Positions 6,177-62,366 of a stretch of DNA of 64,000 nucleotides are shown one piece after another; within the stretch, counting starts at the first letter, position 1; each line of letters starts with the position of its first letter. The translations under genes and the position numbers were made by a program. Source of the stretch: Thermoplasmata archaeon (lineage in GTDB: Archaea > Thermoplasmatota > Thermoplasmata > Lutacidiplasmatales > UBA184); assembly GCA_028864975.1 (NCBI GenBank), contig JAGWLG010000013.1, positions 2,618-66,617 of the forward strand, in the 5' to 3' direction. The notes below the pieces were generated by a model. That model was not told the origin of the DNA. It searched no databases and was given only the letters and a program-made list of their open reading frames with translations.

Positions 6177-6272
6177 CGGCGGCGGGAAGGGTTGGGGGGT
6201 TTGACCGTTTCGAGTCGCTGCGAGGAGGGTCTGTCCGCCCACCAAAGCAGCTACCCACGGAGCGGGGGTCCG

Positions 6273-6674
6273 CTACGGCCGCAGGCGTTGACCCTGGCTC
6301 CCATCCGTTCCCGAGTGCGCCCATTGTCGCTCGAGTTCCGGGATGTCTGCGAGGGCACGTTGGATATCCCGGTGGAGATTGCGGTAGGTCAGGGGATCGC
6401 GGCGGCGGAAACGGTAGAAGTAGGCGGTGCCTCGGTGTAGCAAGTAGAGCCCTCGATAGCCAGGGTCGTCCTTTGACAGCCTATGGACGAGTTTGCGCAG
6501 CTCCGCCGGACCCCGGAGGGGTTCGATCTGTACATGATGGACCGGGTCGGGTGCGTCGTAGGTCGGGTCCTCGTGGAGGAGGGCCATAACGGCGAGGAAG
6601 TCATCCTGCACGGCTTCGGGAAAAGCCGCAAAGGCCGCCTGTGCCCATTCGAAGATGTGGACCCCGGGGCCCAT
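6273..6674 (-). CDS. RelE/ParE-like toxin-like protein (putative)
   Basis: 133 aa. The C-terminal half (GYRGLYLLHRGTAYFYRFRRRD) resembles the RelE/ParE core strands. Its start overlaps the stop of the upstream small gene by 1 nt. Confidence 0.5.
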   Translation of the reverse strand: MGPGVHIFEWAQAAFAAFPEAVQDDFLAVMALLHEDPTYDAPDPVHHVQIEPLRGPAELRKLVHRLSKDDPGYRGLYLLHRGTAYFYRFRRRDPLTYRNLHRDIQRALADIPELERQWAHSGTDGSQGQRLRP

Positions 6675-6913
6675 TAGCGGCGCCCCGCCAGGACGCGTGC
6701 TCGGAACTTGTCAAAGGGGACGGTGCGTGCCGCACCGGACAGGAGGGCCTCCCGGGCCCTCAACCCCTCCACGACGTCCTGGAGGTCCTCGATCCGCTCG
6801 GCCATGTCAAGAAGGAACTGGTCCCAATTCTGAGAACCGGTCTTCATCTGTTGGAGGAAGCGAATGGTCGACGCGTGCGCCGGGATGCTGGAAAGGGGGT
6901 CCTTCGTCGCCAT
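6674..6913 (-). CDS. Small antitoxin-like protein (putative partner of 6273..6674)
   Basis: 79 aa, translationally coupled to the downstream toxin-like ORF. Its N-terminus resembles that of the antitoxin at 32860..33156 (MAT...; xxxRFLQQMK vs xxARRLAELK). Confidence 0.45.
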   Translation of the reverse strand: MATKDPLSSIPAHASTIRFLQQMKTGSQNWDQFLLDMAERIEDLQDVVEGLRAREALLSGAARTVPFDKFRARVLAGRR

Positions 6914-6931
6914 GACCCTTTCATGAGGTCC

Positions 6932-6945
6932 ATGATATTAATGGA
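6932..6945 (-). promoter_or_regulatory. AT-rich TATA-like box upstream of 6674..6913
   Basis: The plus-strand sequence atgatattaatgga is an isolated AT-rich patch centred about 26 nt from the ATG at 6913. Confidence 0.4.
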
Positions 6946-7385
6946 TACGGGGATCGCACTTGCGGACCGCGAGCCTTTGGGCCGAGGAGACGGCGGCTAG
7001 GCGGCCTTCGAAAGGAGCCTACCTTCGGTGCGATCACCTCGGGCCCGCGGTTCGGTCGGAAGCACCTCGGTTCGGCGCGGGCCGAGGCGGTGTGCCTGCC
7101 CGGCTCGAGGCCGGGCGGGGGAGAACTGCTCACCGGGATCACCTGTGCTCAGAACCCTGCGTGGAGGGGGCTCAAGAGCGCTGACTACCTGAGCAGGTAG
7201 GACATTCCATCGAGGCCTGCCCTCATGCCCTTGAGCGAAAGCATCACGGAGGGAGGGCTCCTGCTCCCACCGGGAAGGGGCCTTCACGCACCTGCTCCGG
7301 CGCTGGGAGGGAGGGGCGAAAGGCTACCCGAACCCGTGAGGTGCCTCCCGAGAGGCATAAGACCTCCTCAAATCATGGGCTCGCG

Positions 7386-32539: not shown

Positions 32540-32863
32540 TCAGAGCGCCCGAGTGTGCATTCCTTCGAACCGCCGATACACCGTCCCTCTGGGACCGATG
32601 ACCCAGAACTCGACCTTGGCGTTGTCGAAACGGTAGATTGCTCGCCAACCCAGAGGGTAGCCCGGACGAACGCCGAACTTCACCCGCCAGAACCCGGGGT
32701 GGTGGACCAGCCGTTTCACCACGGGCGGGGGAGGTGGATGAAGCGGGTCGCGGCAGACGCGGCGGCGCAGCTCGTTCAGTTCACGCTGGAGCGAGGGGTC
32801 CACCTTCGCGAGCCCGTCGAACTCCTCGGCCGCGGCGTAGACGAACTCGAAAGGGATGCTCAC
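32540..32863 (-). CDS. relE: RelE/ParE-family toxin
   Basis: 107 aa. FWRVKFGVRPGYPLGWRAIYRFDNAKVEFWVIGPRGTVYR is a typical RelE core. It has a 4-nt overlap with the upstream antitoxin gene. Confidence 0.8.
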   Translation of the reverse strand: MSIPFEFVYAAAEEFDGLAKVDPSLQRELNELRRRVCRDPLHPPPPPVVKRLVHHPGFWRVKFGVRPGYPLGWRAIYRFDNAKVEFWVIGPRGTVYRRFEGMHTRAL

Positions 32864-33156
32864 ACCACGAGGCCGTTGCGGCGCGTCACTTCCTCACCAG
32901 GAATGCGCGGCTGGTGCGCGCGGCGTTTCAGTTCGGAGCGCAGGCGTGGGGAGAGGCGACCCTTCTCAAGGGCGGCGTCGTCCGAGCCAGAGAAGGTGAA
33001 GAAGCTCGTGCGCTCCTTGAGCACCCGCGCGACCTCCTCGCGGCTCTTGCCTGAGATCGCGACCGAGACCACCTCGTCGTAGGTGGCCCCCGCGGGCTTG
33101 AGCTCCGCTAGCCGCCGGGCCGTCTCCGTCGAGACCTGGATCGTCGTGGTCGCCAT
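32860..33156 (-). CDS. Antitoxin (partner of RelE-like toxin)
   Basis: 98 aa. MATTTIQVSTETARRLAELKPAGATYDEVVSVAI is an antitoxin-type N-terminal DNA-binding segment. It is translationally coupled to 32540..32863. Confidence 0.7.
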   Translation of the reverse strand: MATTTIQVSTETARRLAELKPAGATYDEVVSVAISGKSREEVARVLKERTSFFTFSGSDDAALEKGRLSPRLRSELKRRAHQPRIPGEEVTRRNGLVV

Positions 33157-33593: not shown

Positions 33594-34001
33594 TCACCGC
33601 CCCACATGTTGCTCGACCCATCGCAGGACACGCTCGGCCTGGGCCAGGGCACGTTCGGCTTCATCGGCGGAGAGTCCGTCTCCCCCATACTCCACCCGAT
33701 TCTTGAGGTCCAGAACGGAGAGCACCCGCCGCGTGACCACTTCCAGCCCCTCGGTCGGAGCGTCTTTCATCAACCGAACGACGTCTCGGTGGTCCTCCCC
33801 CTTGTTCCTGAGGCCGAGCTTGCGTACGGTGAACGCGTCGCAGGCGGAGATGACGGCGTGTATCGCGGCCAGTCCTGCGCCTGAATACCGTAGGTCTTCG
33901 AGCGCCCATCGAGCCATCCCCTCAAACTCACGAGCTTTGGACAGGTAGTTCGTCGACTCTCTGGAGGCGACCTGCTCGGTCCTGGGGGGAGGTCGTGTCA
34001 T
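33594..34001 (-). CDS. hepT: HEPN-domain toxin (HepT-like)
   Basis: 135 aa with the Rx4-6H motif in LRNKGEDHRDV and a helical composition. It has a 4-nt overlap with the upstream MNT gene. Confidence 0.85.
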   Translation of the reverse strand: MTRPPPRTEQVASRESTNYLSKAREFEGMARWALEDLRYSGAGLAAIHAVISACDAFTVRKLGLRNKGEDHRDVVRLMKDAPTEGLEVVTRRVLSVLDLKNRVEYGGDGLSADEAERALAQAERVLRWVEQHVGR

Positions 34002-34591
34002 GACGATCTCAGCAGGTCCACGCCCTCGCGCTCCACGCTCTCCAAGAAGCTCGGGCTGATGCGCCCATGAAGGTCATCTCGGGTCACGATCAGCGGAGCC
34101 AGGACGAGGCCGTATCGATCCCGGATCTTCTGGCGGACCGGAAAGAGCAGGTCCTCCACGCCTTGGCGATCGGACGCCCGTCGAAGTTCGATGAGGATGT
34201 CCACGTCGCTCCAGCCTTTCTCAGTCCCGCGAGCCACGGAACCGAACAGCAGGGCCCGCCGCACCCGTGGGGAGCGCAGGCCCTCCGTCAGCTCCCTCTT
34301 GAGCTCGCTCTCCAGGGCCTCCTCGGCTCGGAAGAGGGCGCGAAGAGGCCCGAGGAGGGCATTCTTCGGCTCAAGCGTCCATTGATGAATGCGACCCACG
34401 ACCCGACGGTCGATCACCCCCTCGCCTTCGAGAAGCGCCAACGCACCCTGAACATGGGAGAGAGCCAAACGACCGCTGCGAGCCAATTCGGGAGCGGTGA
34501 ACGGCTCCCCCGGGGATCGCGTCAGCACTCGGAGAACATGGAGGGTACCTTTCCCCCTCAGGAGATCATCCAGTGGGCGGTGAACTCTCAT
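33998..34591 (-). CDS. mntA: wHTH plus minimal nucleotidyltransferase (MntA-like antitoxin)
   Basis: NTase motifs are LLFGSVARGTEKGWSDVDILIEL, and the N-terminal winged helix is LHVLRVLTRSPGEPFTAPELAR. The ATG at 34591 is used (the track start at 34594 is a TTG). Confidence 0.88.
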   Translation of the reverse strand: MRVHRPLDDLLRGKGTLHVLRVLTRSPGEPFTAPELARSGRLALSHVQGALALLEGEGVIDRRVVGRIHQWTLEPKNALLGPLRALFRAEEALESELKRELTEGLRSPRVRRALLFGSVARGTEKGWSDVDILIELRRASDRQGVEDLLFPVRQKIRDRYGLVLAPLIVTRDDLHGRISPSFLESVEREGVDLLRSS

Positions 34592-34600
34592 CAACCTGGA

Positions 34601-42268: not shown

Positions 42269-42688
42269 TCAGGGGACGGAGGGCGCCAAAGAGGCGAGCC
42301 GTCGGTCGAAGGTGGCGAGGCGATCTATCCGCAGCTCCCGCATCGAAGCCAGGAGCGCGGCGTCGGTGAAGCTGAGCCGCTGATCGCGGTACTTGCGGAA
42401 GACCCCCCACGCAGGCCGCATCAACGAGGTCCCGAGGGAGGCGATCGAGAGCCCCCGGAGCTCCGGAGTGGGCAACGGGAGGAGCCGGGCCGCAGCCTCT
42501 TCGAGGGCGGGGGGGTCCCTTCGGCTGCGGATCAAGGTGAAGAGCTCGTGGACCACGTGGTCCAGCACGAGGGGAGCCCCGAACTCTCGTCGACCGACAC
42601 GGTCCAGGAGCGCGGTGGCCCGTTCGTGGGCCTCATCATCATGGTTGAGCGCCCCGTAGAGCACCCCGGTGTCGAGGAGGACGCTCAT
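42269..42688 (-). CDS. vapC: PIN-domain ribonuclease toxin VapC
   Basis: The ATG at 42688 lies inside track ORF 42269..42850. PIN acidic residues are in MSVLLDTGVL, ...HELF..., SFTDAALLA and LATFDRR. It has a 4-nt overlap with the upstream antitoxin gene. Confidence 0.88.
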   Translation of the reverse strand: MSVLLDTGVLYGALNHDDEAHERATALLDRVGRREFGAPLVLDHVVHELFTLIRSRRDPPALEEAAARLLPLPTPELRGLSIASLGTSLMRPAWGVFRKYRDQRLSFTDAALLASMRELRIDRLATFDRRLASLAPSVP

Positions 42689-42960
42689 CGGAAGGTCTTG
42701 GCGATGTCGCGGTCGATATCCTCCTCGCGCGAGCGTTTCCCGGTACGCACGCATAGGCGGTGGAGCCTCTCGAGCTCCCTCTGGGTCATAGGGCGGAACG
42801 CGTCGGGTCCCAGGCGGTCCCGTTCGGCCTCGGCCAGGTCCATGACCCACGAGAGCAGGAGCTGCTGCGGGATCCTCTCGCCATACTTGGCCATGAGCTC
42901 CCCCTGGAGCCGGTCCAAGCGGTGCTTGTCGGCTTCCAGCATTTTCACGGACGTGGTCAT
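42685..42960 (-). CDS. vapB: VapB-type antitoxin
   Basis: 91 aa, small and helical, translationally coupled to vapC. Confidence 0.7.
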   Translation of the reverse strand: MTTSVKMLEADKHRLDRLQGELMAKYGERIPQQLLLSWVMDLAEAERDRLGPDAFRPMTQRELERLHRLCVRTGKRSREEDIDRDIAKTFR

Positions 42961-42980
42961 CGTCGGAGTAGAAGTTTCTA

Positions 42981-42993
42981 CAAAATATAAAGC
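42981..42993 (-). promoter_or_regulatory. TATA-like box for vapBC
   Basis: The sequence caaaatataaagc (CTTTATATTTTG on the minus strand) is centred about 26 nt upstream of the ATG at 42960. An adjacent palindrome gtagaagtttctac (42968-42981) lies between the box and the start. Confidence 0.45.
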
Positions 42994-43003
42994 TCTACAA
43001 GCG

Positions 43004-43030
43004 GGGTTCTGTCCCAGATTCGGGCCGTGG
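43004..43030. repeat. Left terminal inverted repeat
   Basis: The sequence is gggttctgtcccagattcgggccgtgg. Confidence 0.8.
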
Positions 43031-43134
43031 GCCGGTCAGGCACTCGCCCGTCCCGCGTCGGGGCGCCACCTCACCTAGCATGCGATCTCGTGGTCCCCTC
43101 CACCTTTATCCGTCGCCCACCACGTAGTTTTCCC

Positions 43135-44373
43135 GTGCCCCCCGTCGTCCTTTCCCTGACCTTCCCTGTGGCCGACCTGCCGCCCCCGGTCCGCTCGGTC
43201 ATGGCCGAGTTCCGATTGATGGTCAATCGCGGCATCCGCTTCGCCCTCGAGGAGAACAAGACCGCCCGGGGGTCCATCCCTCCCTCCTTCCGACAGACGC
43301 TCATGCGGGAGCATCGGGTGAACTCGACCCATGTCGCCGCCGCGCTCGAGGTCGCCCTCACCTGCGCCAAGGGGCACCGACGCCTCCTGCGGAAGGGGAG
43401 GGCGGGGCACGTCCCCTACTGCCGACGCCCCTTTCTGAAGACCTCCAAGTCGAGCTTTCACATCGACCCGGACACCGGGAAGGTTCGCTTATCGCTCCGG
43501 AACGGGGAGTGGGTCTCCTTCTTCGTACCCGTCTCCCAGCATGCACGGCGGACCCTCCTTGACCCGAAGGTCCGCTTGAAGGCGCTCACCCTCACCGAAC
43601 GGAAGCTCTCCCTCGCCTACGAGGTCGACGCTCCGGAGCCCTATGTCCCCGAGGCCGCCATCGCTCTCGACACCAATGAGCGCTCGCTCGACGGGGTGCT
43701 CGCGACCCCCTCGAGCTGTGAGCCTGTCGTCGTCCCCTTCCCCGAGGTCAAGAGGGTCCAGCAGACCCACTTCGAGCGCCGACGGAGACTGGGGAGGAAG
43801 AAGGCTCACGACCGCAGGGTGAAGCGGCGACTGCTCGGCCGCGAGGGAAAGCGAGAGCATGACCGGGTGAACTCCCGCCTGCACATGCTGACGAACACCC
43901 TGGTCGCCACGGCCCGCGAGAATCGGGCCGTCCTGGTCCTGGAGGACCTGAAGCCCCCCCAGGGGGGAGGTCGCGGACGCCGGCAGCGTCGTGGGCTCTC
44001 CTCCTGGCCGCAGGGGGAGCTGCACCGACAGATCCGCTACAAGAGCGCCCTGCACGGGGTGCCCCTCATCACCGTGAACCCTCGATACACGAGCAAGACC
44101 TGCCCGAGATGTGGCGTGAGAGCCGAAAGGGTGGGCAAGGTGTTCGACTGCGCGGGCTGCGGGTGGTCCTTGGACCGCCAGCGGAACGCGGGGATCAACA
44201 TCTACGCAACGGCTCGGCGGGAGACCGCCGAACTTGGAGGTCTACGGTTCGACCTCGACGCCCTGGCCAAGGATGTGGTGATCCCCCTCTACCCCGCGGG
44301 CAGCGCCGCGAGGGCACGGGAGGAGCGGACGGTCAGGGAGCCCAAGGGGACGGTCGGGCGAGGGACATCCTGA
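43135..44373 (+). CDS. tnpB: TnpB-like RNA-guided endonuclease homologue (IS200/IS605 OrfB family), third RuvC Asp replaced
   Basis: RuvC-I is IALDTNERSL, RuvC-II is VLVLEDLK, and the zinc finger is CPRCG...CAGCG. The RuvC-III region reads LDRQRNAGINIY. I chose the GTG at 43135 as start because a TTTAT box lies about 28 nt upstream; the track start is 43027. Confidence 0.9.
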   Translation: MPPVVLSLTFPVADLPPPVRSVMAEFRLMVNRGIRFALEENKTARGSIPPSFRQTLMREHRVNSTHVAAALEVALTCAKGHRRLLRKGRAGHVPYCRRPFLKTSKSSFHIDPDTGKVRLSLRNGEWVSFFVPVSQHARRTLLDPKVRLKALTLTERKLSLAYEVDAPEPYVPEAAIALDTNERSLDGVLATPSSCEPVVVPFPEVKRVQQTHFERRRRLGRKKAHDRRVKRRLLGREGKREHDRVNSRLHMLTNTLVATARENRAVLVLEDLKPPQGGGRGRRQRRGLSSWPQGELHRQIRYKSALHGVPLITVNPRYTSKTCPRCGVRAERVGKVFDCAGCGWSLDRQRNAGINIYATARRETAELGGLRFDLDALAKDVVIPLYPAGSAARAREERTVREPKGTVGRGTS

Positions 44374-44769
44374 GCCGCGGCCCGAATCGGGGACAGAACC
44401 CTCGGAAAAAGTGGCAATCAGCTCCCTACCGGCGAGGCTCCGCTCCGGTACGATGAAGACGTCGAGCTGAGGTTTGGCCCGGCTACGAAGTGCCTCCAAC
44501 TCCTTCCTCCTCGCCCTATAGAGGGCGGGAGGGACCACGACGAGAATGTCGATGTCGTGAGGAGCGGGCTCCGATGTCACGAAGCTCCCGTTGATAAGGA
44601 CAGATCCGGAGATGGCCCTGCGCTCGAGGTCCGCCAAAAGACGACGGAGCTCCCGAAGCAACTCACGACGACGTCGAGTCTGTCCGAACCGCGCCTCCAG
44701 CTCGTGGTAGGTGCAGGGCCAGACCCCGAAGGGCAGCTTCCCATCGTTGTCAAGAAGTGGAATGGTCAT
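44242..44769 (-). CDS. Nucleotidyltransferase-fold protein (DUF6932-like, from memory); 3-prime end runs into the tnpB element
   Basis: The N-terminal region is LPFGVWPCTYHELEARFG and the NTase motif is INGSFVTSEPAPHDIDILVV. From about codon 123 onward, the ORF is encoded by sequence inside the right TIR and the tnpB 3-prime end (44242-44401), so the true C-terminus is doubtful. Confidence 0.65.
   Translation of the reverse strand: MTIPLLDNDGKLPFGVWPCTYHELEARFGQTRRRRELLRELRRLLADLERRAISGSVLINGSFVTSEPAPHDIDILVVVPPALYRARRKELEALRSRAKPQLDVFIVPERSLAGRELIATFSEGSVPDSGRGSGCPSPDRPLGLPDRPLLPCPRGAARGVEGDHHILGQGVEVEP
44375..44401. repeat. Right terminal inverted repeat
   Basis: The plus-strand sequence is ccgcggcccgaatcggggacagaaccc. 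Its reverse complement, gggttctgtccccgattcgggccgcgg, matches the left repeat at 25 of 27 positions. Confidence 0.8.
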
Positions 44770-44778
44770 CGCCCGCCC

Positions 44779-45438
44779 TCACAGGGTCGAGGACGGGCGG
44801 GAGACGCGCGTCGCCGTGAGGCCCCACGACTCCAGCTCCTCGAACGTCCGCCGCACGGCGGCCTCCAGCAGCCCCCACTGACGCGCGGTGGCAGGAAGCT
44901 GCTGCGCGTGGTACGCCCTCCAGGCGACCCGAGCCACGTACTTGGAGTTCGCCTTTCCCGCGTCCGTGTAGAGGCGCCGACCGAGGTGATCGGGGTCACC
45001 TCGCGCGAGGTCGCGGAAGTGGTCGCGCGCTTCCCGCCAGGCGTACCCGCCTGGCGGCGCGGCCCGCAGGGCCTTCATCCGGTTCTCGGTGCGATCTTCC
45101 GAGGGGAGCGCGCGGATCCCCGGGGTCGCGCGCAGCTCCCGCGTGACGAACTTCGGGTCCGTCATTGCGGCGTCTCCATGACGGGGTGCTCGTAGCTCAC
45201 GGCGGCATGAAGGGTGCGGACACATAGCTCGCACACGCGCGCGAGTCGCTTCGGGGGGGGAGCGAGGGCCCGCCTTGCGCGTCTTGCCTTCATGCGGGAG
45301 GGAGGACGCGCCCCGACCTCGCCGGGGTGCGTAAGCTACGTAGACCCCCCCGAACCTGGTCCCTTTCGGGAAGCGCTCGCCGCAGTTGCGGCATGTTCGG
45401 CAACCGTCGGTGATGTGGACGTAGAATCGGCGGGCCAT
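44779..45438 (-). CDS. Hypothetical protein upstream of the NTase gene (possible zinc-ribbon N-terminus; Rx6H motif near the C-terminus)
   Basis: The ATG at 45438 gives MARRFYVHITDGCRTCRNCGERF... An alternative ATG at 45165 gives a 128-aa product (MTDPKFVTRELRA...). The C-terminal region contains KYVARVAWRAYHAQQL. I did not recognise a family. Confidence 0.4.
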   Translation of the reverse strand: MARRFYVHITDGCRTCRNCGERFPKGTRFGGVYVAYAPRRGRGASSLPHEGKTRKAGPRSPPEATRARVRAMCPHPSCRRELRAPRHGDAAMTDPKFVTRELRATPGIRALPSEDRTENRMKALRAAPPGGYAWREARDHFRDLARGDPDHLGRRLYTDAGKANSKYVARVAWRAYHAQQLPATARQWGLLEAAVRRTFEELESWGLTATRVSRPSSTL

Positions 45439-45481
45439 GGACCTCGTTCCTCGGAAAGGAGGAACGAGTTGGGTGGGGGGC

Positions 45482-45865
45482 TCAGTCGCGCGCTTCTTGG
45501 AGGACGAACTGGTGTCGCCTCTCACGCAGGATCAGGTCGTAGTGCTCGAAGAAAGGCCTCCGCCCGAGGAGCGCGACCGGGGTGTCCCGTCCTTTCTCGG
45601 TAACCAGGATCGGGTCCAGGGGGAAGGAAAGCAGGACCTTCCCCTCGAGGTCCGGGCTGAGGACGTGAAGGTGGACCCTGGAGGCGCGCGCGGGGACAGG
45701 GCCCCCGACCGCGGCACGCTCTTGCGTCCTGTCCCCCTTCTCGAGCCCAAGGACCTCCGCGACCTCCGACGGGACGGCAGAGAAGGTCGAACCCGTGTCG
45801 ATGACCATCCGGGTCTCCAGATGGGAGCGGCCCCAGGAGAGACGGACCTTCAGGGAGGGGGCCAT
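45482..45865 (-). CDS. Retropepsin-like (clan AA) aspartic protease domain protein
   Basis: The ATG at 45865 lies inside track ORF 45482..46189, and a GTG alternative is at 45886. The active-site context is ETRMVIDTGSTFSAVP, with a later LLGRRPFFEHYDL typical of single-domain retropepsin-like proteins. Confidence 0.7.
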   Translation of the reverse strand: MAPSLKVRLSWGRSHLETRMVIDTGSTFSAVPSEVAEVLGLEKGDRTQERAAVGGPVPARASRVHLHVLSPDLEGKVLLSFPLDPILVTEKGRDTPVALLGRRPFFEHYDLILRERRHQFVLQEARD

Positions 45866-45957
45866 CTCCTTCCGGGCCCCGTACACTACCGGCTGGTAGG
45901 GGAAGGCCCGGGAGCGGCTCCGCCCCGCGCGAGAGGAAGAGGGCGTTCGCGGCCCCC

Positions 45958-46194
45958 CTACAGCAGGAGGGAGTCCTGCTCCAAGACGTGGAACATCATG
46001 GGTTCGTGGCCAGGGGAAGCCCTGCGACCCTCCTCCAGCACCCGGCGCAGCTCCTTGCCTGCTGCGACCACCTTCCGGTTGACGATGGCCACCCACTCGC
46101 CACGGTGGCGGCGCATCACCGCGTCCGGTGGCATGTCTGCCCCAGGTGGGGCCGAAGGTCCTCGTCCGGGCATGGGCTTGCTCGTCCATCTCAT
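45958..46194 (-). CDS. Small DUF5678-like protein (from memory)
   Basis: The C-terminal part is HRGEWVAIVNRKVVAAGKELRRVLEEGRRASPGHEPMMFHV. The start is uncertain, with ATG codons at 46194 and 46134. Confidence 0.55.
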   Translation of the reverse strand: MRWTSKPMPGRGPSAPPGADMPPDAVMRRHRGEWVAIVNRKVVAAGKELRRVLEEGRRASPGHEPMMFHVLEQDSLLL

Positions 46195-46303
46195 CGTCCC
46201 TCCGCCATTACCCCTTTCGTCATCCGAGCATCCCCGTCCCCGAGGTCTCCTCACGAGACGGGAAATCTCGGGCCCGACCCCACAGCTCACGCGGGGGCCC
46301 GGG

Positions 46304-46666
46304 CTACGGAAGGCCCAACAGGGCCCGAAGCAGGTCGTCGACCATGCCCATCACAGGGCATGTCCCGAGCTGGCGGAGGATACGGTCCTCCGGGACCGTC
46401 GCGAGGTTGTCTAGCGCGAGGACGGAGTCCGTACGAAGTCCCATGGAACGTCCCTCGGGGCTCTCGACGTGGAACAGGGGCCTCGTCGGCCCTGTGGTCT
46501 CGATCGCGGAGGTGATCGCCGCGACCAGGACGTCGGGGTAAGGTCCCCTCACCGAGGGGTCCTGGACGAGGAGCGCGGGTCTTGGCTTCCAGGAGCGAAA
46601 GTCGATGTTCGGGAACTCGACGAGGGAGACCCCGCCCCTCTCAAGGCGCGGCGTCATTGTAGACAT
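46304..46666 (-). CDS. mazF: MazF/PemK-family toxin
   Basis: 120 aa. KPRPALLVQD...VLVAAITS...GLRTDSVLALDNLATV matches the PemK/MazF core. Confidence 0.8.
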   Translation of the reverse strand: MSTMTPRLERGGVSLVEFPNIDFRSWKPRPALLVQDPSVRGPYPDVLVAAITSAIETTGPTRPLFHVESPEGRSMGLRTDSVLALDNLATVPEDRILRQLGTCPVMGMVDDLLRALLGLP

Positions 46667-46856
46667 CCATCCGGGGGTCGTCCCATTCCCGAGCGAAGGA
46701 AGCGAGACGGGCGCGCAGCGCCTTCGCCTCGGAGGGGGTCATCCCGACCTCGGAGAGCGGTCGCCCCTTGGCGGGGTGCCGATCTTCTGGGGGCTCGTGG
46801 GTTTGGGAGGCGGATGCCTTGGATGCCACGAGGGCAAAAGGGCCCGGGCGGCCCAT
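46641..46856 (-). CDS. Putative antitoxin of the MazF-like toxin
   Basis: This is a short ORF from an internal ATG of track ORF 46641..47057. Its end overlaps the mazF start by 26 nt, and the C-terminus is MTPSEAKALRARLASFAREWDDP. Both the start and the reality of this gene are uncertain. Confidence 0.4.
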   Translation of the reverse strand: MGRPGPFALVASKASASQTHEPPEDRHPAKGRPLSEVGMTPSEAKALRARLASFAREWDDPRMDVYNDAAP

Positions 46857-46905
46857 AACGGTTTCCCCGGCCACTCGGTCTGACGAACGCGAAGGGCGGG
46901 GCTCG

Positions 46906-47301
46906 TCAGAGAAGGCGGACGTTACGTCCCTCTTCGCGCAGGACCTCCCTCTCGGCGATCCGTGCGAGCTTGAACGATACGCTTCGACCGGCGCCCCGAC
47001 GGCGGCGGGCCCCCCTCGCGAAGAACCCCGCCAAGACGCAGATGTCCGCGGGAACACATAGGTGGGTTCCGGCCCTGGCGACTCCTTCGTTCGTCACCTG
47101 ATGGCGTGGGAACGCCTCGCTAAGACTTCGCCTGAGCCACCGTGCCTCCGGCCCCGTCAGGTTCAGCTTGACAAGATGGTCGCTTTCGGCCAGCATCTCC
47201 TTGTAGGTCATCTCGAGATAGGACTTCTGAGGCATCGAGAGCACCATGGCTTCCGAGGGGACATCTGTTTCGGTCCTCCTCGGAGGTGAAAGGTGACCCA
47301 A
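46906..47301 (-). CDS. Hypothetical protein
   Basis: 131 aa in locally less GC-rich DNA, with protein-like composition in the first half (MPQKSYLEMTYKEMLAESDHLVKLNL). I did not recognise a family. Confidence 0.35.
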   Translation of the reverse strand: MGHLSPPRRTETDVPSEAMVLSMPQKSYLEMTYKEMLAESDHLVKLNLTGPEARWLRRSLSEAFPRHQVTNEGVARAGTHLCVPADICVLAGFFARGARRRRGAGRSVSFKLARIAEREVLREEGRNVRLL

Positions 47302-47616
47302 GCGGCGCCGCTACAGGTCGCCCTCCTGGCGTTCCTCCGCGAGGCGCCACGTCCGGACCCCCCGCCCGCCGAGCACGGCCACCAGGAGGACGGCCGCGGT
47401 CAGTCCGAGGTCGATCATCGTCCCCTCAACGGGCGACCAAGTTCGTCGTGGGGAGGAAGCTGGGGCAGCAGGGGCGAGTGGGAGTGAGGAGCGCCGACCC
47501 TCGCGCCAGGAGTGTGGCCACGGCCCGCGCGACAGCCGGCCGCGCGTGGCGGGAAGGGGGAGAGAGCGACCCTACAGGGAGGTCGGGGGCCCCGGCGGCC
47601 CTGGCCGAGGGGTCGG

Positions 47617-48773: not shown

Positions 48774-49415
48774 TTGATGGGTAAGAGCTCGTCCAGGATG
48801 TGAGCCGGGCGCCTGTAGCGTGGGTGAGCGGGCGAGCCTCGCGCAGCGGACCTGGCTTCTGGGGCTCCCCGCGTGCGGTCATGGACTGCGCGAGGAGTCC
48901 TCGTCTCCGATGACTACCCCGCGATGTTCAGCGGCGGTTCGCCACCCAAGGACTTCCTGGTCCCACTCAGCTTCCAGGACATCGGCCTCGCGCTTCCGGT
49001 CGACCAGCTCCATGCCGATCCAGTCCCAGTCGGGCTGGTTGGGGGGCAGCCCGGGCCGCGGTCGCCTGCAGCCTCGGAAGTGCGGGGCGAGCTCGTAGCT
49101 CGCGTCCCCGCAGGAGACGTGGGTCCAGGTCGTACGTCACCCGGTACAGCACTGGACCGCAGGTGAAGGACTCGGCGACCCAGCCCGTCACCGGGTCGTC
49201 GCGGGCAGCGAGCAAGCCCCCCGACGGCGGCACGTTCGGCGGGGCGATGTCGACCTCGGCCCCTCAGCCGTTGCAGAGCGCTCGGATGGGGTTGGACATG
49301 GCGGCACCTCCTCACTGGGGGAGGAGGGGTCGCAAGTTTCGCCGGCGTCTCCCCTGCGCGGATATGGCGAGCCGACCACAACCGCCTTGGTCCGCGGCGT
49401 CTCGGGTGGCCCGTG

Positions 49416-49658
49416 ATGGAAGGAACCGCGCCTCCTTCGAAGCCCAAGAAAGAGCCCAAGGTCGAGCCTCCGCGGGTCATGGAGTGCGCGGACTGCCACA
49501 AGAGCTTCGCGAGCAGGTCCGTCTTCCACTGGGACGTGCACCTCCCGGAGGGGGGCTACGTCACCGTCTGCACCCCGTGCTTCGAGAAGAGGGACCAGTC
49601 GAGGATCAGCGCCGAGCGGCGCGAGGCGGACAAGCCTCCGGCCAAGAGGCGGAAGTGA
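49416..49658 (+). CDS. Small Cys4 zinc-binding protein with Lys-rich termini
   Basis: 80 aa with CADCHKSF...VCTPCFEKRD and basic N- and C-terminal tails. Confidence 0.5.
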   Translation: MEGTAPPSKPKKEPKVEPPRVMECADCHKSFASRSVFHWDVHLPEGGYVTVCTPCFEKRDQSRISAERREADKPPAKRRK

Positions 49659-49785
49659 GCACCCGACGGCGGGCATCGGGGACCTTGTCGCCGAGCCCTT
49701 GAAAGGGGACGGGGCTGACCCGGGGCACCTCCTAGGGGGTGGCGAAGCTCTCGTAGGCTCGACGTTCGGTGTTCGACTGGGTGGA

Positions 49786-49818
49786 CATCTTCGTCCTCGT
49801 GGAGGGAGGACGAAGATG
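49786..49818. other. Perfect 13-bp-stem hairpin in an intergenic region
   Basis: The left arm catcttcgtcctc (49786-49798), a 7-nt loop gtggagg, and the right arm gaggacgaagatg (49806-49818). Confidence 0.8.
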
Positions 49819-61136: not shown

Positions 61137-62366
61137 ATGCTGACCGCCGTGAAGTTCCGCCTCTATCCTTTCCCGGACCAGGCGCGGGAGCTCGACCGTC
61201 AGCTCTCCGAACTGAACTCCCTCTGGAACCACGCCCTCGAAGAGCGGTGCGCTGCGTGGAAGAAGGAGAGGCGGTCCCTCACCTTCGTCCAGCAGTGTCA
61301 GGAGCTGACCCGGTGGCGGAACTTCGACCGGGAGGGTCTCGGGAGGGTGAACGCCCAGGTCGCGCAGGAGTGCCTGGCCCGCCTGAACGACGCGTTCCAG
61401 CACTTCTTCCGCAGGGTCAAGAGCGGGGAGGCTCCCGGGTTCCCTCGCTTCAATCGGGAGACCACGTCGCTGACCTATCCCCAGGCCTACGACTCCGTGA
61501 GGCTCGTCCCTGGGAGGAACGGGACGCGAAGGCTCTCCCTGTCCAGGGTGGGGGACCTTCCGATCGAGGTCCACCGGGAGCTTCCCGCGGGCCGTACGAA
61601 GACCTGCACGGTCGAGCGGGAGGGAGACCGATGGTATGCGGTCCTGATCGTAGAGATGGCGGACCCGGTCCCTCCCCCCGACCTTCCTCCCCGCCATCCC
61701 TTGGGCGTGGACCTGGGACTCTCTCGCCTCGCCACGCTGTCGACCGGGGAGGCGGTCGAGGCCCCGAGGTTCCTCCGACGCTCGGAGGTCCAGCTGAAGC
61801 GCCAGCAGCGGAGGCTCTCGAGGAAGCGGAGGGGCTCCCACAACTGGCGGAAGCAGAAGGCGAGGGTCCAGCGGTGCCACGCGAGGGTCCGGGACCAGCG
61901 GCGCGATCTGGCGCACCAGCTCACGTCGACCTGGGCGCGAGAGCACGACCTCATCGCCTTCGAGGACCTGGACGTGAGGTCGCACCTCATGGGCCCCTTC
62001 TCCAAGTCCACCGCCGACGCGGGTTGGGGGATGCTGCGTCGGTTCGCCGAGTACAAGGAAGCGCGCCGGTCGGGCCGGTACGTCGAGGTGCCGTCGAAGG
62101 GGACGACCCAGAGCTGCTCGGCGTGCGCACGGCCGCATGACCCGCCCCTGACGCTCCGGGACCGCACGTACGAGTGCCCGTGCGGTCTGCGGCTCGACCG
62201 AGATGTGAACGCGGCGAGGAACGTGCTCGCCCGCGCCCTCGCCATCGTAGGGGGGGATACCCCCGAAGTGACGCCGGTGGAGATCGGACCTCCGGTGGCC
62301 CGCAAGGGCCGCCGCGTCCGGTCCATGAAGCAGGAACCGCCCTCGGCCGTGGGTGCGAGCACCTGA
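61137..62366 (+). CDS. tnpB: TnpB RNA-guided endonuclease (IS200/IS605 OrfB), catalytic triad intact
   Basis: 409 aa. The N-terminus is MLTAVKFRLYP. RuvC-I is PLGVDLGLSRLA, RuvC-II is LIAFEDLDV, the zinc finger is CSACA...CPCG, and RuvC-III is LDRDVNAARNVL. Confidence 0.95.
   Translation: MLTAVKFRLYPFPDQARELDRQLSELNSLWNHALEERCAAWKKERRSLTFVQQCQELTRWRNFDREGLGRVNAQVAQECLARLNDAFQHFFRRVKSGEAPGFPRFNRETTSLTYPQAYDSVRLVPGRNGTRRLSLSRVGDLPIEVHRELPAGRTKTCTVEREGDRWYAVLIVEMADPVPPPDLPPRHPLGVDLGLSRLATLSTGEAVEAPRFLRRSEVQLKRQQRRLSRKRRGSHNWRKQKARVQRCHARVRDQRRDLAHQLTSTWAREHDLIAFEDLDVRSHLMGPFSKSTADAGWGMLRRFAEYKEARRSGRYVEVPSKGTTQSCSACARPHDPPLTLRDRTYECPCGLRLDRDVNAARNVLARALAIVGGDTPEVTPVEIGPPVARKGRRVRSMKQEPPSAVGAST

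Follow-up and report, generated by a model that had tools for sequence, protein, structure and literature searches.

Do the short, tightly packed genes that lie beside dph2 in a Thermoplasmata archaeon belong together as one defense islet, or were they gathered piece by piece? The question is raised by positions 42269-47418 of a 64,000-nucleotide stretch of DNA, called the window below, which corresponds to C46:2618-66617 in a genome of 3.6 Mb, 124 contigs and 67% GC (C numbers designate the contigs of this genome). A previous interpretation, hereafter the sequence-only reading, had described these genes, located between dph2 and a zinc-ribbon/PH-like pair, as a single defense or addiction islet packed with toxin-antitoxin (TA) modules and split by an insertion sequence (IS) carrying tnpB. 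The analysis reported here favors another answer, with a probability of about 0.8: the 5.1-kb stretch is a mosaic of separately gained TA-type cassettes lying in at least 22 kb of strain-specific DNA.

The proposed course of events can be briefly summarized as follows. Small self-contained cassettes of the type II TA kind would have been gained one at a time. Left of the IS stands what would be an intact VapBC cassette with its own TATA box, adjoining the core gene dph2. Right of it would follow a 3'-cut DUF6932 gene, a 0.7-kb module holding a 128-aa gene, a DUF5678-protease pair, a small open reading frame (ORF) with MazF, and a 109-aa orphan. The IS would have inserted into the end of the DUF6932 gene, making an 8-bp duplication and parting this gene from an overlapping 87-aa helical partner which is now on contig C102. 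The two halves would have been brought together later, either by inversion between inverted IS copies or by an assembler path through the repeated IS.

Distribution among relatives and base composition

The gene products of the block were searched with the hidden Markov models (HMMs) of Pfam, NCBIfam and PADLOC. Each of the gene families named in the sequence-only reading was recovered (PIN, TnpB, DUF6932, Asp_protease_2, DUF5678 and PemK/MazF), and every gene except tnpB does lie on the minus strand. All islet proteins were then joined as one query and searched in 30 relatives, the flanking genes being treated in a separate joined query. None of the 30 carries an islet gene on its dph2 contig, and the block is in this sense variable, as had been suspected. 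In G001, a member of the same genus, dph2 is directly followed by NUDIX, NAC, CBS, GNAT and PAC2 genes. Elsewhere in these relatives, sporadic homologs were found for VapBC, the orphan, the 128-aa gene and MazF, the last accompanied by its small ORF in G012. Synteny within the genus is limited to dph2 and its 152-aa membrane neighbor. The zinc-ribbon/PH-like pair, which had been taken as the other border, is not conserved: apart from a multicopy 81-aa zinc-ribbon gene, the whole of 42.2-64 kb is without a same-genus homolog. Accessory DNA therefore covers 22 kb or more, and the right border that had been proposed is arbitrary. The genome as a whole is 0.6-1.1 Mb bigger than those of its same-genus relatives, which measure only 2.5-3.0 Mb, and must therefore contain much additional DNA. 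Its archaeal nature is indicated by dph2, NAC and a proteasome chaperone of the PAC2 type.

The view of the block as one defense or addiction islet did not withstand these comparisons. The modules are scattered and occur separately elsewhere, the edge of one module is the edge of a repeat, and the halves flanking the IS differ in their ancestral neighbors; for these reasons the block is not one coherent islet. TA-type cassettes are scattered in the window rather than concentrated in one place, since an MNT-HEPN pair and a DUF7557 pair are found elsewhere in it. The expectation that uncharacterized two-gene systems would be found here was correct insofar as TA-type modules are abundant and one real uncharacterized system, the DUF5678-protease pair, is present, but the nucleotidyltransferase (NTase) had been assigned to the wrong partner.

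Base composition offers little sign of a foreign block. A GC dip had been noticed at 47.0-48.8 kb; it is real (0.644 against 0.679 +/- 0.018) but modest, about 2 standard deviations low and rank 14 of 311 among windows of 1.8 kb, and it falls mostly outside the islet, mainly over the zinc-ribbon/PH-like pair. The GC content at third codon positions (GC3) is host-like, at 0.83-0.88 for a core value of 0.857 +/- 0.038, in VapBC, TnpB, the 128-aa gene, the protease pair and MazF. The codon-usage check for a foreign block thus gave normal usage in most modules, with low values (0.72-0.76) only in DUF6932, the small ORF before mazF and the orphan. The stretch resembles a genomic island in being absent from close relatives and differs from one in that no tRNA or integrase was found, that its GC is 0.675 against 0.678 for the window, and that GC3 is mostly host-like. 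Nor are several known defense systems placed side by side as in a defense island: PADLOC returned no validated defense system; it matched TnpB to models of the Cas12f type and otherwise gave only PDC-M63A, a candidate, and PDC-M52B, weakly (E = 0.02).

The insertion sequence and the junction of the two halves

The IS occupies 43005-44400 on the plus strand (1396 bp) with tnpB as its sole gene (ORF 43027/43201-44373). Its two ends were defined from other copies in the same genome, on C102, C79 and C73. The second copy is represented by a left end at C102:49749-49971, which runs off the contig, and by a right end at C79:1-147, at the contig start; a solo right end of 193 bp lies at C73:21585-21777. 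C102 and C79 break 223 bp and about 147 bp inside the IS, with 96.4% and 98.6% identity to the copy of the window, and both break points are where copy-specific differences end.

The flanks of these copies tell the two halves apart. The two flanks of the window copy do not match each other, so that this copy has no target duplication of its own. The left flank on C102 and the right flank in the window have a perfect 8-bp duplication in common, CTCGGAAA, and the left flank in the window is identical to the right flank on C79 at six of eight positions. Behind the second IS copy, C79 carries NUDIX, NAC, CBS, GNAT and PAC2, the very genes located 3' of dph2 in G001. Judged by these flanks, the right half is a segment once continuous with C102, and the left half one once continuous with C79.

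The most serious rival explanation concerns this junction, and is compatible with the mosaic. The adjacency of the halves could be an assembly artefact: the two copies have the same IS core, and the assembler may have left it by the wrong path. The true order would then be dph2-vapCB-IS followed by NUDIX-NAC of C79, and the 87-aa gene of C102 followed by IS-DUF6932. C102 and C79 end precisely where copy-specific differences stop, as an unresolved repeat predicts, and the un-swapped order keeps both target duplications (8/8 and 6/8) as well as the dph2...NUDIX synteny of G001. A true inversion between inverted IS copies nevertheless predicts identical contigs, and the 77-kb contig C46 spans the IS unbroken. 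The artefact is therefore given a substantial chance that falls somewhat short of even, and a real inversion would be the likelier of the two origins by a modest degree.

Carriers of TnpB of the IS200/IS605 type are normally devoid of terminal inverted repeats and of target duplications. The TnpB of the window matches the HMMs of this family (TnpB/Cas12f TNB domain of Pfam, 4.6e-20), whereas the element itself has inverted ends of about 50 bp (GGTTCTGTCCC...GGGACAGAACC) and makes an 8-bp target duplication. The duplication by this tnpB-only element is independently confirmed by a natural empty site in the metagenomic contig L077. Such a combination is atypical for TnpB carriers and suggests mobilization in trans by a DDE transposase.

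The DUF6932 nucleotidyltransferase and its downstream partner

The gene split by the IS is, as had been recognized, that of an NTase-fold protein. The minimal NTase DUF6932 (44401-44769, minus strand; Pfam 1.5e-22; GC3 0.72) has an intact GS-x9-DxD core and enters the IS at codon 123, after 122 codons of its own. The annotated ORF runs on to 44242 and its last 53 codons are IS sequence. As found, the protein matches positions 3-115 of the 142 of the Pfam model (81.0 bits) and PDC-M63A with 46 bits; the match is not full-length in the window, where IS sequence takes the place of the C-terminus. The empty site was reconstructed by joining the C102 flank to the right flank of the window with removal of one 8-mer. 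This restores an ORF of 139 aa, 17 residues being regained, whose TGA overlaps (ATGA) the start of the 87-aa gene on C102. The Pfam match is thereby extended to 3-141/142 (92.8 bits) and the PDC-M63A score rises from 46 to 58 bits. A metagenomic homolog, P0012, is 73% identical and exactly 139 aa long, and on its contig, L077, a near-identical gene for 87 aa comes next and overlaps DUF6932 by 4 nt. L077 is collinear with the window flank plus C102, contains no IS and has the target in single copy. The Pfam extension, the 139-aa homolog, its 87-aa neighbor and the collinear IS-free contig all support the join. No DUF6932 homolog was found among the 30 relatives.

A second locus, L078, sheds light on the nature of the partner. 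DUF6932 shares 4 nt there with a downstream gene encoding a helical N-terminal region and an HTH_3 domain of the XRE type. This helical region can be aligned collinearly with the 87-aa protein, with a Smith-Waterman score of 56 against 28.7 +/- 5.5 for shuffled sequences (none of 2000 shuffles reached 56; z about 5). The sequence-only reading had paired the NTase with an upstream gene; the fold was correctly named, but by these gene orders the conserved partner is the downstream 87-aa gene. The window NTase gene is in fact a chimera with IS sequence, and annotation or cloning from the window alone would mispair the genes.

DUF6932 is likely the toxic member of its pair, by analogy with the toxin-first order of HigBA, in which the second gene is of the XRE type; the partner of the L078 relative carries precisely an XRE helix-turn-helix. 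From family knowledge, the downstream hairpin, with or without such a helix-turn-helix, would neutralize the toxin, and the pair of the window is probably disabled. The cassette shares with PDC-M63 the minimal NTase with GS-x9-DxD, the match to PDC-M63A and the 4-nt overlap with a downstream helical partner. It differs in that the partner is an 87-aa hairpin without helix-turn-helix, and in that the gene is IS-truncated with its partner on a separate contig. The identification of this partner as PDC-M63B was discarded, as neither the 87-aa protein of C102 nor P0014 or P0015 gave a match to PDC-M63B. AbiEii and MenT are known NTase toxins. The present protein differs from AbiEii in belonging to DUF6932, not DUF1814, and in having no AbiEi-type partner. 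The two-gene cassette built on a minimal NTase recalls MNT-HEPN, from which it differs by the lack of an adjoining HEPN gene, the partner being a helical hairpin; neither the 128-aa nor the 87-aa protein has a HEPN match in Pfam. In the only published test retrieved, PDC-M63AB gave no phage defense in E. coli NILS69 (bioRxiv 10.1101/2024.12.20.629700). A literature search yielded no relevant paper on DUF6932 itself, and word-indexed protein searches extended no further than very close relatives of DUF6932 and the protease.

The repeated module of the 128-aa gene

The gene upstream of DUF6932 (44779-45165, minus strand) codes for a 128-aa protein of a rare family without known domain, designated partner129, whose homologs measure 123-130 aa. 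It belongs to a 0.7-kb module (44767-45468) which is repeated in this genome with a DNA identity of 84-91% to C72 and 79-84% to C92, and the repeat boundary at 44767 falls exactly on the DUF6932 start codon. Distant homologs of partner129 are found in operons of small unknown genes from which DUF6932 is absent. The AlphaFold2 (AF2) model is a four-helix bundle of low confidence, with a predicted local distance difference test (pLDDT) of 57.6. Two other interpretations of this gene were considered and rejected. A longer reading of 219-248 aa is contradicted by the lengths of the homologs and by aperiodic codons in the 5' extension. A role as HEPN partner, raised by the string RVAWRAYH, finds no HEPN match and no match in the PDB, the model being all-helical with low confidence.

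Both paralogs of the module are interrupted: that at C72:56231-57724 by insertions of 105 bp, about 650 bp and 100 bp, that at C92:48172-50703 by a 1.9-kb insertion unique in the genome. Upstream of the 128-aa gene, at 45169-45438, a short Cys-rich reading (MARRFYVHITDGCRTCRNCGERFPKG...) is conserved in P0007, from a metagenomic relative, and in the C72 and C92 repeats; codon periodicity is lacking over the full 270 nt. A tiny ORF for a zinc ribbon is one possibility here, a regulatory leader another.

The DUF5678 and retropepsin-like protease pair

The next cassette is composed of a single-domain retropepsin-like aspartic protease (45482-45883, minus strand; GC3 0.85) and a small DUF5678 protein of 58 aa encoded 74-92 nt upstream (45958-46134, minus strand; Pfam 1.5e-11). 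The protease carries the DTGS and LLGR motifs and measures 133 aa from the GTG at 45883 or 127 aa from the ATG at 45865; its homolog P0009 starts at the equivalent GTG. It matches Asp_protease_2 with 1.8e-5 and 25.8 bits (Pfam cut-off 24.3) around the motif MVIDTGSTF, and D30, G32 and T34 are invariant in the protease alignment A1. The NCBIfam model TIGR03698 (clan_AA_DTGF) gave 15.9 bits, below its cut-off of 57.35.

Both families had been named from the sequence and are confirmed, and the two genes form a recurrent same-strand pair. Of 151 genomes examined in the class, 49 contain DUF5678; the copy number reaches 14 and is seven in the present genome. A protease profile was searched over the same 151 genomes: at each of the 18 loci with E < 1e-7, a same-strand DUF5678 gene lies 50-260 nt upstream, and the pair is found at 35 of 48 loci overall, the unpaired ones being weak matches which cover the DTG region only. 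Six pairs are present in this genome, four intact and two frameshifted (C93 and C101). A divergent pair missed by the profile adjoins a tyrosine recombinase gene in G108. DUF5678 occurs without the protease in some relatives, and protease homologs of Dehalococcoidia stand alone. In a metagenome-assembled genome of Gemmataceae (L061:329-987), the start of the protease homolog is overlapped by a preceding 80-aa ORF which is not DUF5678. The protease may hence have an exchangeable upstream partner.

The AF2 model of DUF5678 (pLDDT 91.2) displays a beta-beta-alpha-beta core and a floppy C-terminal tail. A fold search against the PDB gave nothing significant (best E = 0.8), and DUF5678 is therefore not a recognizable DNA-binding antitoxin. 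The production of both domains as one protein by -1 frameshifting was also envisaged and abandoned, the signal being inconsistent: the -1 relation holds for the window pair, whereas at C84 the two genes share frame 0 and the second has its own ATG after a stop. A literature search retrieved no paper on the DUF5678-protease pairing or on retropepsin-like proteases as TA components, and the only DUF5678 match was an unrelated plant paper.

With the protease as putative effector, a TA-like or conflict module would agree with this distribution. This reading is based on the patchy and multicopy distribution, the decaying copies and the position of the small gene first. By family knowledge, DUF5678 probably restrains a dimeric aspartic protease. 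With the retropepsin-like proteases of clan AA (Asp_protease_2/gag-asp_proteas, TIGR03698), the protein shares its length of about 130 aa, the DTG(S/A) and LLGR motifs and an expected homodimer. It differs from them by the DUF5678 gene which, in this class, precedes every strong match, by its six copies, two of them decayed, in the manner of an addiction module, and by a score far below the TIGR03698 cut-off. A broader proposal is made tentatively: DUF5678-protease could be a new class of TA or conflict system, with a homodimeric aspartic protease as effector and a partner without DNA-binding fold, and the 87-aa hairpin a minimal neutralizer of DUF6932 for which the helix-turn-helix is dispensable. 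Were this true, the four intact and two decaying copies would make this genome a natural test bed for DUF5678-protease.

The VapBC and MazF pairs

The VapBC pair occupies the left side of the IS. VapC (42269-42688, minus strand; 139 aa; GC3 0.85) is a PIN-domain toxin matching Pfam PIN with 1.2e-11 and 45.7 bits (cut-off 23.6) and an NCBIfam VapC subfamily with 3.6e-6; reading of the sequence shows the acidic residues D6, E48, D108 and D127 to be all present. The candidate vapB-like antitoxin gene (42685-42960, minus strand; 91 aa; GC3 0.87) overlaps the vapC start with its stop by the 4 nt that had been reported, ATGA at 42685-42688. Its product has no match in Pfam or NCBIfam up to E = 1 and none in PADLOC, and received no ribbon-helix-helix (RHH), AbrB, Phd or helix-turn-helix assignment. 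The pair is conserved in G008 at a different locus, with 60% identity for VapC and 56% for the vapB-like protein. An AT-rich scan of 42.2-47.7 kb, looking for 8-mers with at least 7 A/T, identified a TATA-like box, CTTTATATTTTG, at 42979-42992 on the minus strand, about 20-30 nt upstream of the vapB-like start. It holds the sole such 8-mer of this stretch, and the left end of the IS lies 12 nt past it. A clear TATA-like box was found before the vapB-like gene only.

On the right side, mazF (46304-46666, minus strand; 120 aa) codes for a PemK-like endoribonuclease toxin (Pfam PemK_toxin, PF02452, 8.6e-11; 42.5 bits for a cut-off of 23.1). The small upstream ORF that had been noted, a candidate antitoxin of 71 aa (46641-46856, minus strand; GC3 0.76), shares 26 nt with it; from another ATG, at 46742, it would measure 33 aa. 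It has no match in Pfam. MazF homologs of 41-46% identity are sporadic, in G003, G010, G012 and on contig C71 of this genome, and a homologous small ORF (39% over residues 10-68) stands directly upstream of the MazF homolog at G012:C61. From what is known of their families, VapC and MazF would be RNases restrained by the upstream antitoxins. The two pairs agree with VapBC and MazEF, both type II TA systems, in that a PIN toxin with four acidic residues and a PemK/MazF toxin each stand behind an overlapping small gene and in their patchy, multicopy distribution. They differ in that the upstream genes match no known antitoxin family (RHH, AbrB, Phd or MazE).

Assessment of the mosaic and of the remaining alternatives

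Several observations weigh against the mosaic of TA-type cassettes. The HMM searches matched neither the vapB-like gene nor the small ORF before mazF to an antitoxin family. The same is true of the 87-aa protein, in which no helix-turn-helix was found; BLASTP gave no alignment of it to the L078 XRE partner, their homology resting on the shuffle test. A partner129 homolog also precedes DUF6932 in L077, and a three-gene unit including partner129 may exist in this lineage. Finally, the second target-duplication pair is imperfect, with six of eight positions.

An origin of the right half, from 44.4 kb onwards, as a decayed integrated plasmid or virus of which the cassettes would be the maintenance genes is considered unlikely. 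It would account for the partner129 homologs of L048, located in long co-directional runs of small overlapping domainless genes ending in a 776-aa protein and resembling a mobile element, for the recombinase gene beside the G108 pair and for the strain-specific nature of the entire region up to 64 kb. Against it, no integrase, att repeat, tRNA target, capsid or replication gene was found in 42-51 kb, and GC3 is host-like in most genes. The tRNA-like string at the C102 end, examined as a possible island target, is the start of a protein gene: GTTCGAATC...CCA is the reverse complement of the 87-aa gene start, and ARAGORN finds no tRNA there.

One coherent defense or addiction islet, whether gained or kept whole between dph2 and the zinc-ribbon/PH-like pair, is highly improbable: the short, tightly packed, same-strand genes, their absence beside dph2 in relatives and the single PADLOC candidate PDC-M63A speak for it, but none of the relatives shows even two modules in this order (G003:C75 comes closest, with DUF5678-protease then a MazF homolog, but the order differs), the modules have separate paralogs and repeat boundaries, the halves differ in ancestral neighbors, the right border is unconserved, PADLOC validated no defense system and GC is ordinary. 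Taken as an islet, the block would add little, TA-rich accessory patches being common in archaea and its unity a by-product of IS activity or assembly. More generally, the window supplies an archaeal and multicopy instance of two cassettes that are widespread and experimentally unexplored, DUF5678-retropepsin and DUF6932-hairpin.

The orphan, the micro-ORF and other features

The orphan (46906-47235, minus strand; 109 aa) represents a very rare family, with six clusters among 1.84 billion representatives, two homologs in G010 and one on contig C88 of this genome; it has no Pfam domain and no PDB match. The closest metagenomic homolog, at L079:2315-3129, shares 4 nt with a gene for 151 aa whose GNAT match (E = 0.047) is below threshold; this hints that the orphan family can take the antitoxin position of a GNAT-type pair. 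The downstream neighbors differ, a GNAT-like gene in L079 and another gene in C88. A fixed partner for the orphan was accordingly ruled out, as downstream genes vary between loci and the GNAT match is below threshold.

The hydrophobic micro-ORF of 35 codons (47311-47418, minus strand), which had been listed as a transmembrane gene, did not hold as such. Its match at C8:26326-26556 (76% DNA identity) has an in-frame 12-nt indel but no start codon at this place. The micro-ORF resembles the transmembrane-helix-plus-Arg tails of surface proteins in this genome, and a remnant or non-ATG element is the probable reading; a conserved gene starting at an ATG finds no support.

Other features of the window and of the associated contigs are as follows. 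About 10 kb from the block, the MNT-HEPN module (33594-34594) consists of overlapping genes for a winged helix-turn-helix NTase (33998-34594) and for HEPN (33594-34001), and the DUF7557 gene (32860-33156) overlaps a 107-aa gene (32540-32863). Another tnpB gene, unrelated (409 aa; 61137-62366), is located within the same strain-specific region. Compared to G001, C79:148-7570 contains about 1.4 kb of extra DNA before NUDIX, with one gene for a weakly OB-fold-like protein of 207 aa and one for 143 aa. An insertion of about 5.5 kb also separates NUDIX from NAC there; within it, genes for 114 aa and 115 aa adjoin each other at 6266-6972. Repeats of 76-85% identity link 47314-47532 of the window to C8:26326-26556, and 49315-49810 to C8:30170-30661 and C8:39806-40070. 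These repeats flank the zinc-ribbon/PH-like pair; one holds the micro-ORF and the other, at 49413-49658, the gene for the 81-aa zinc ribbon, present in several copies and with 82% identity in G003.

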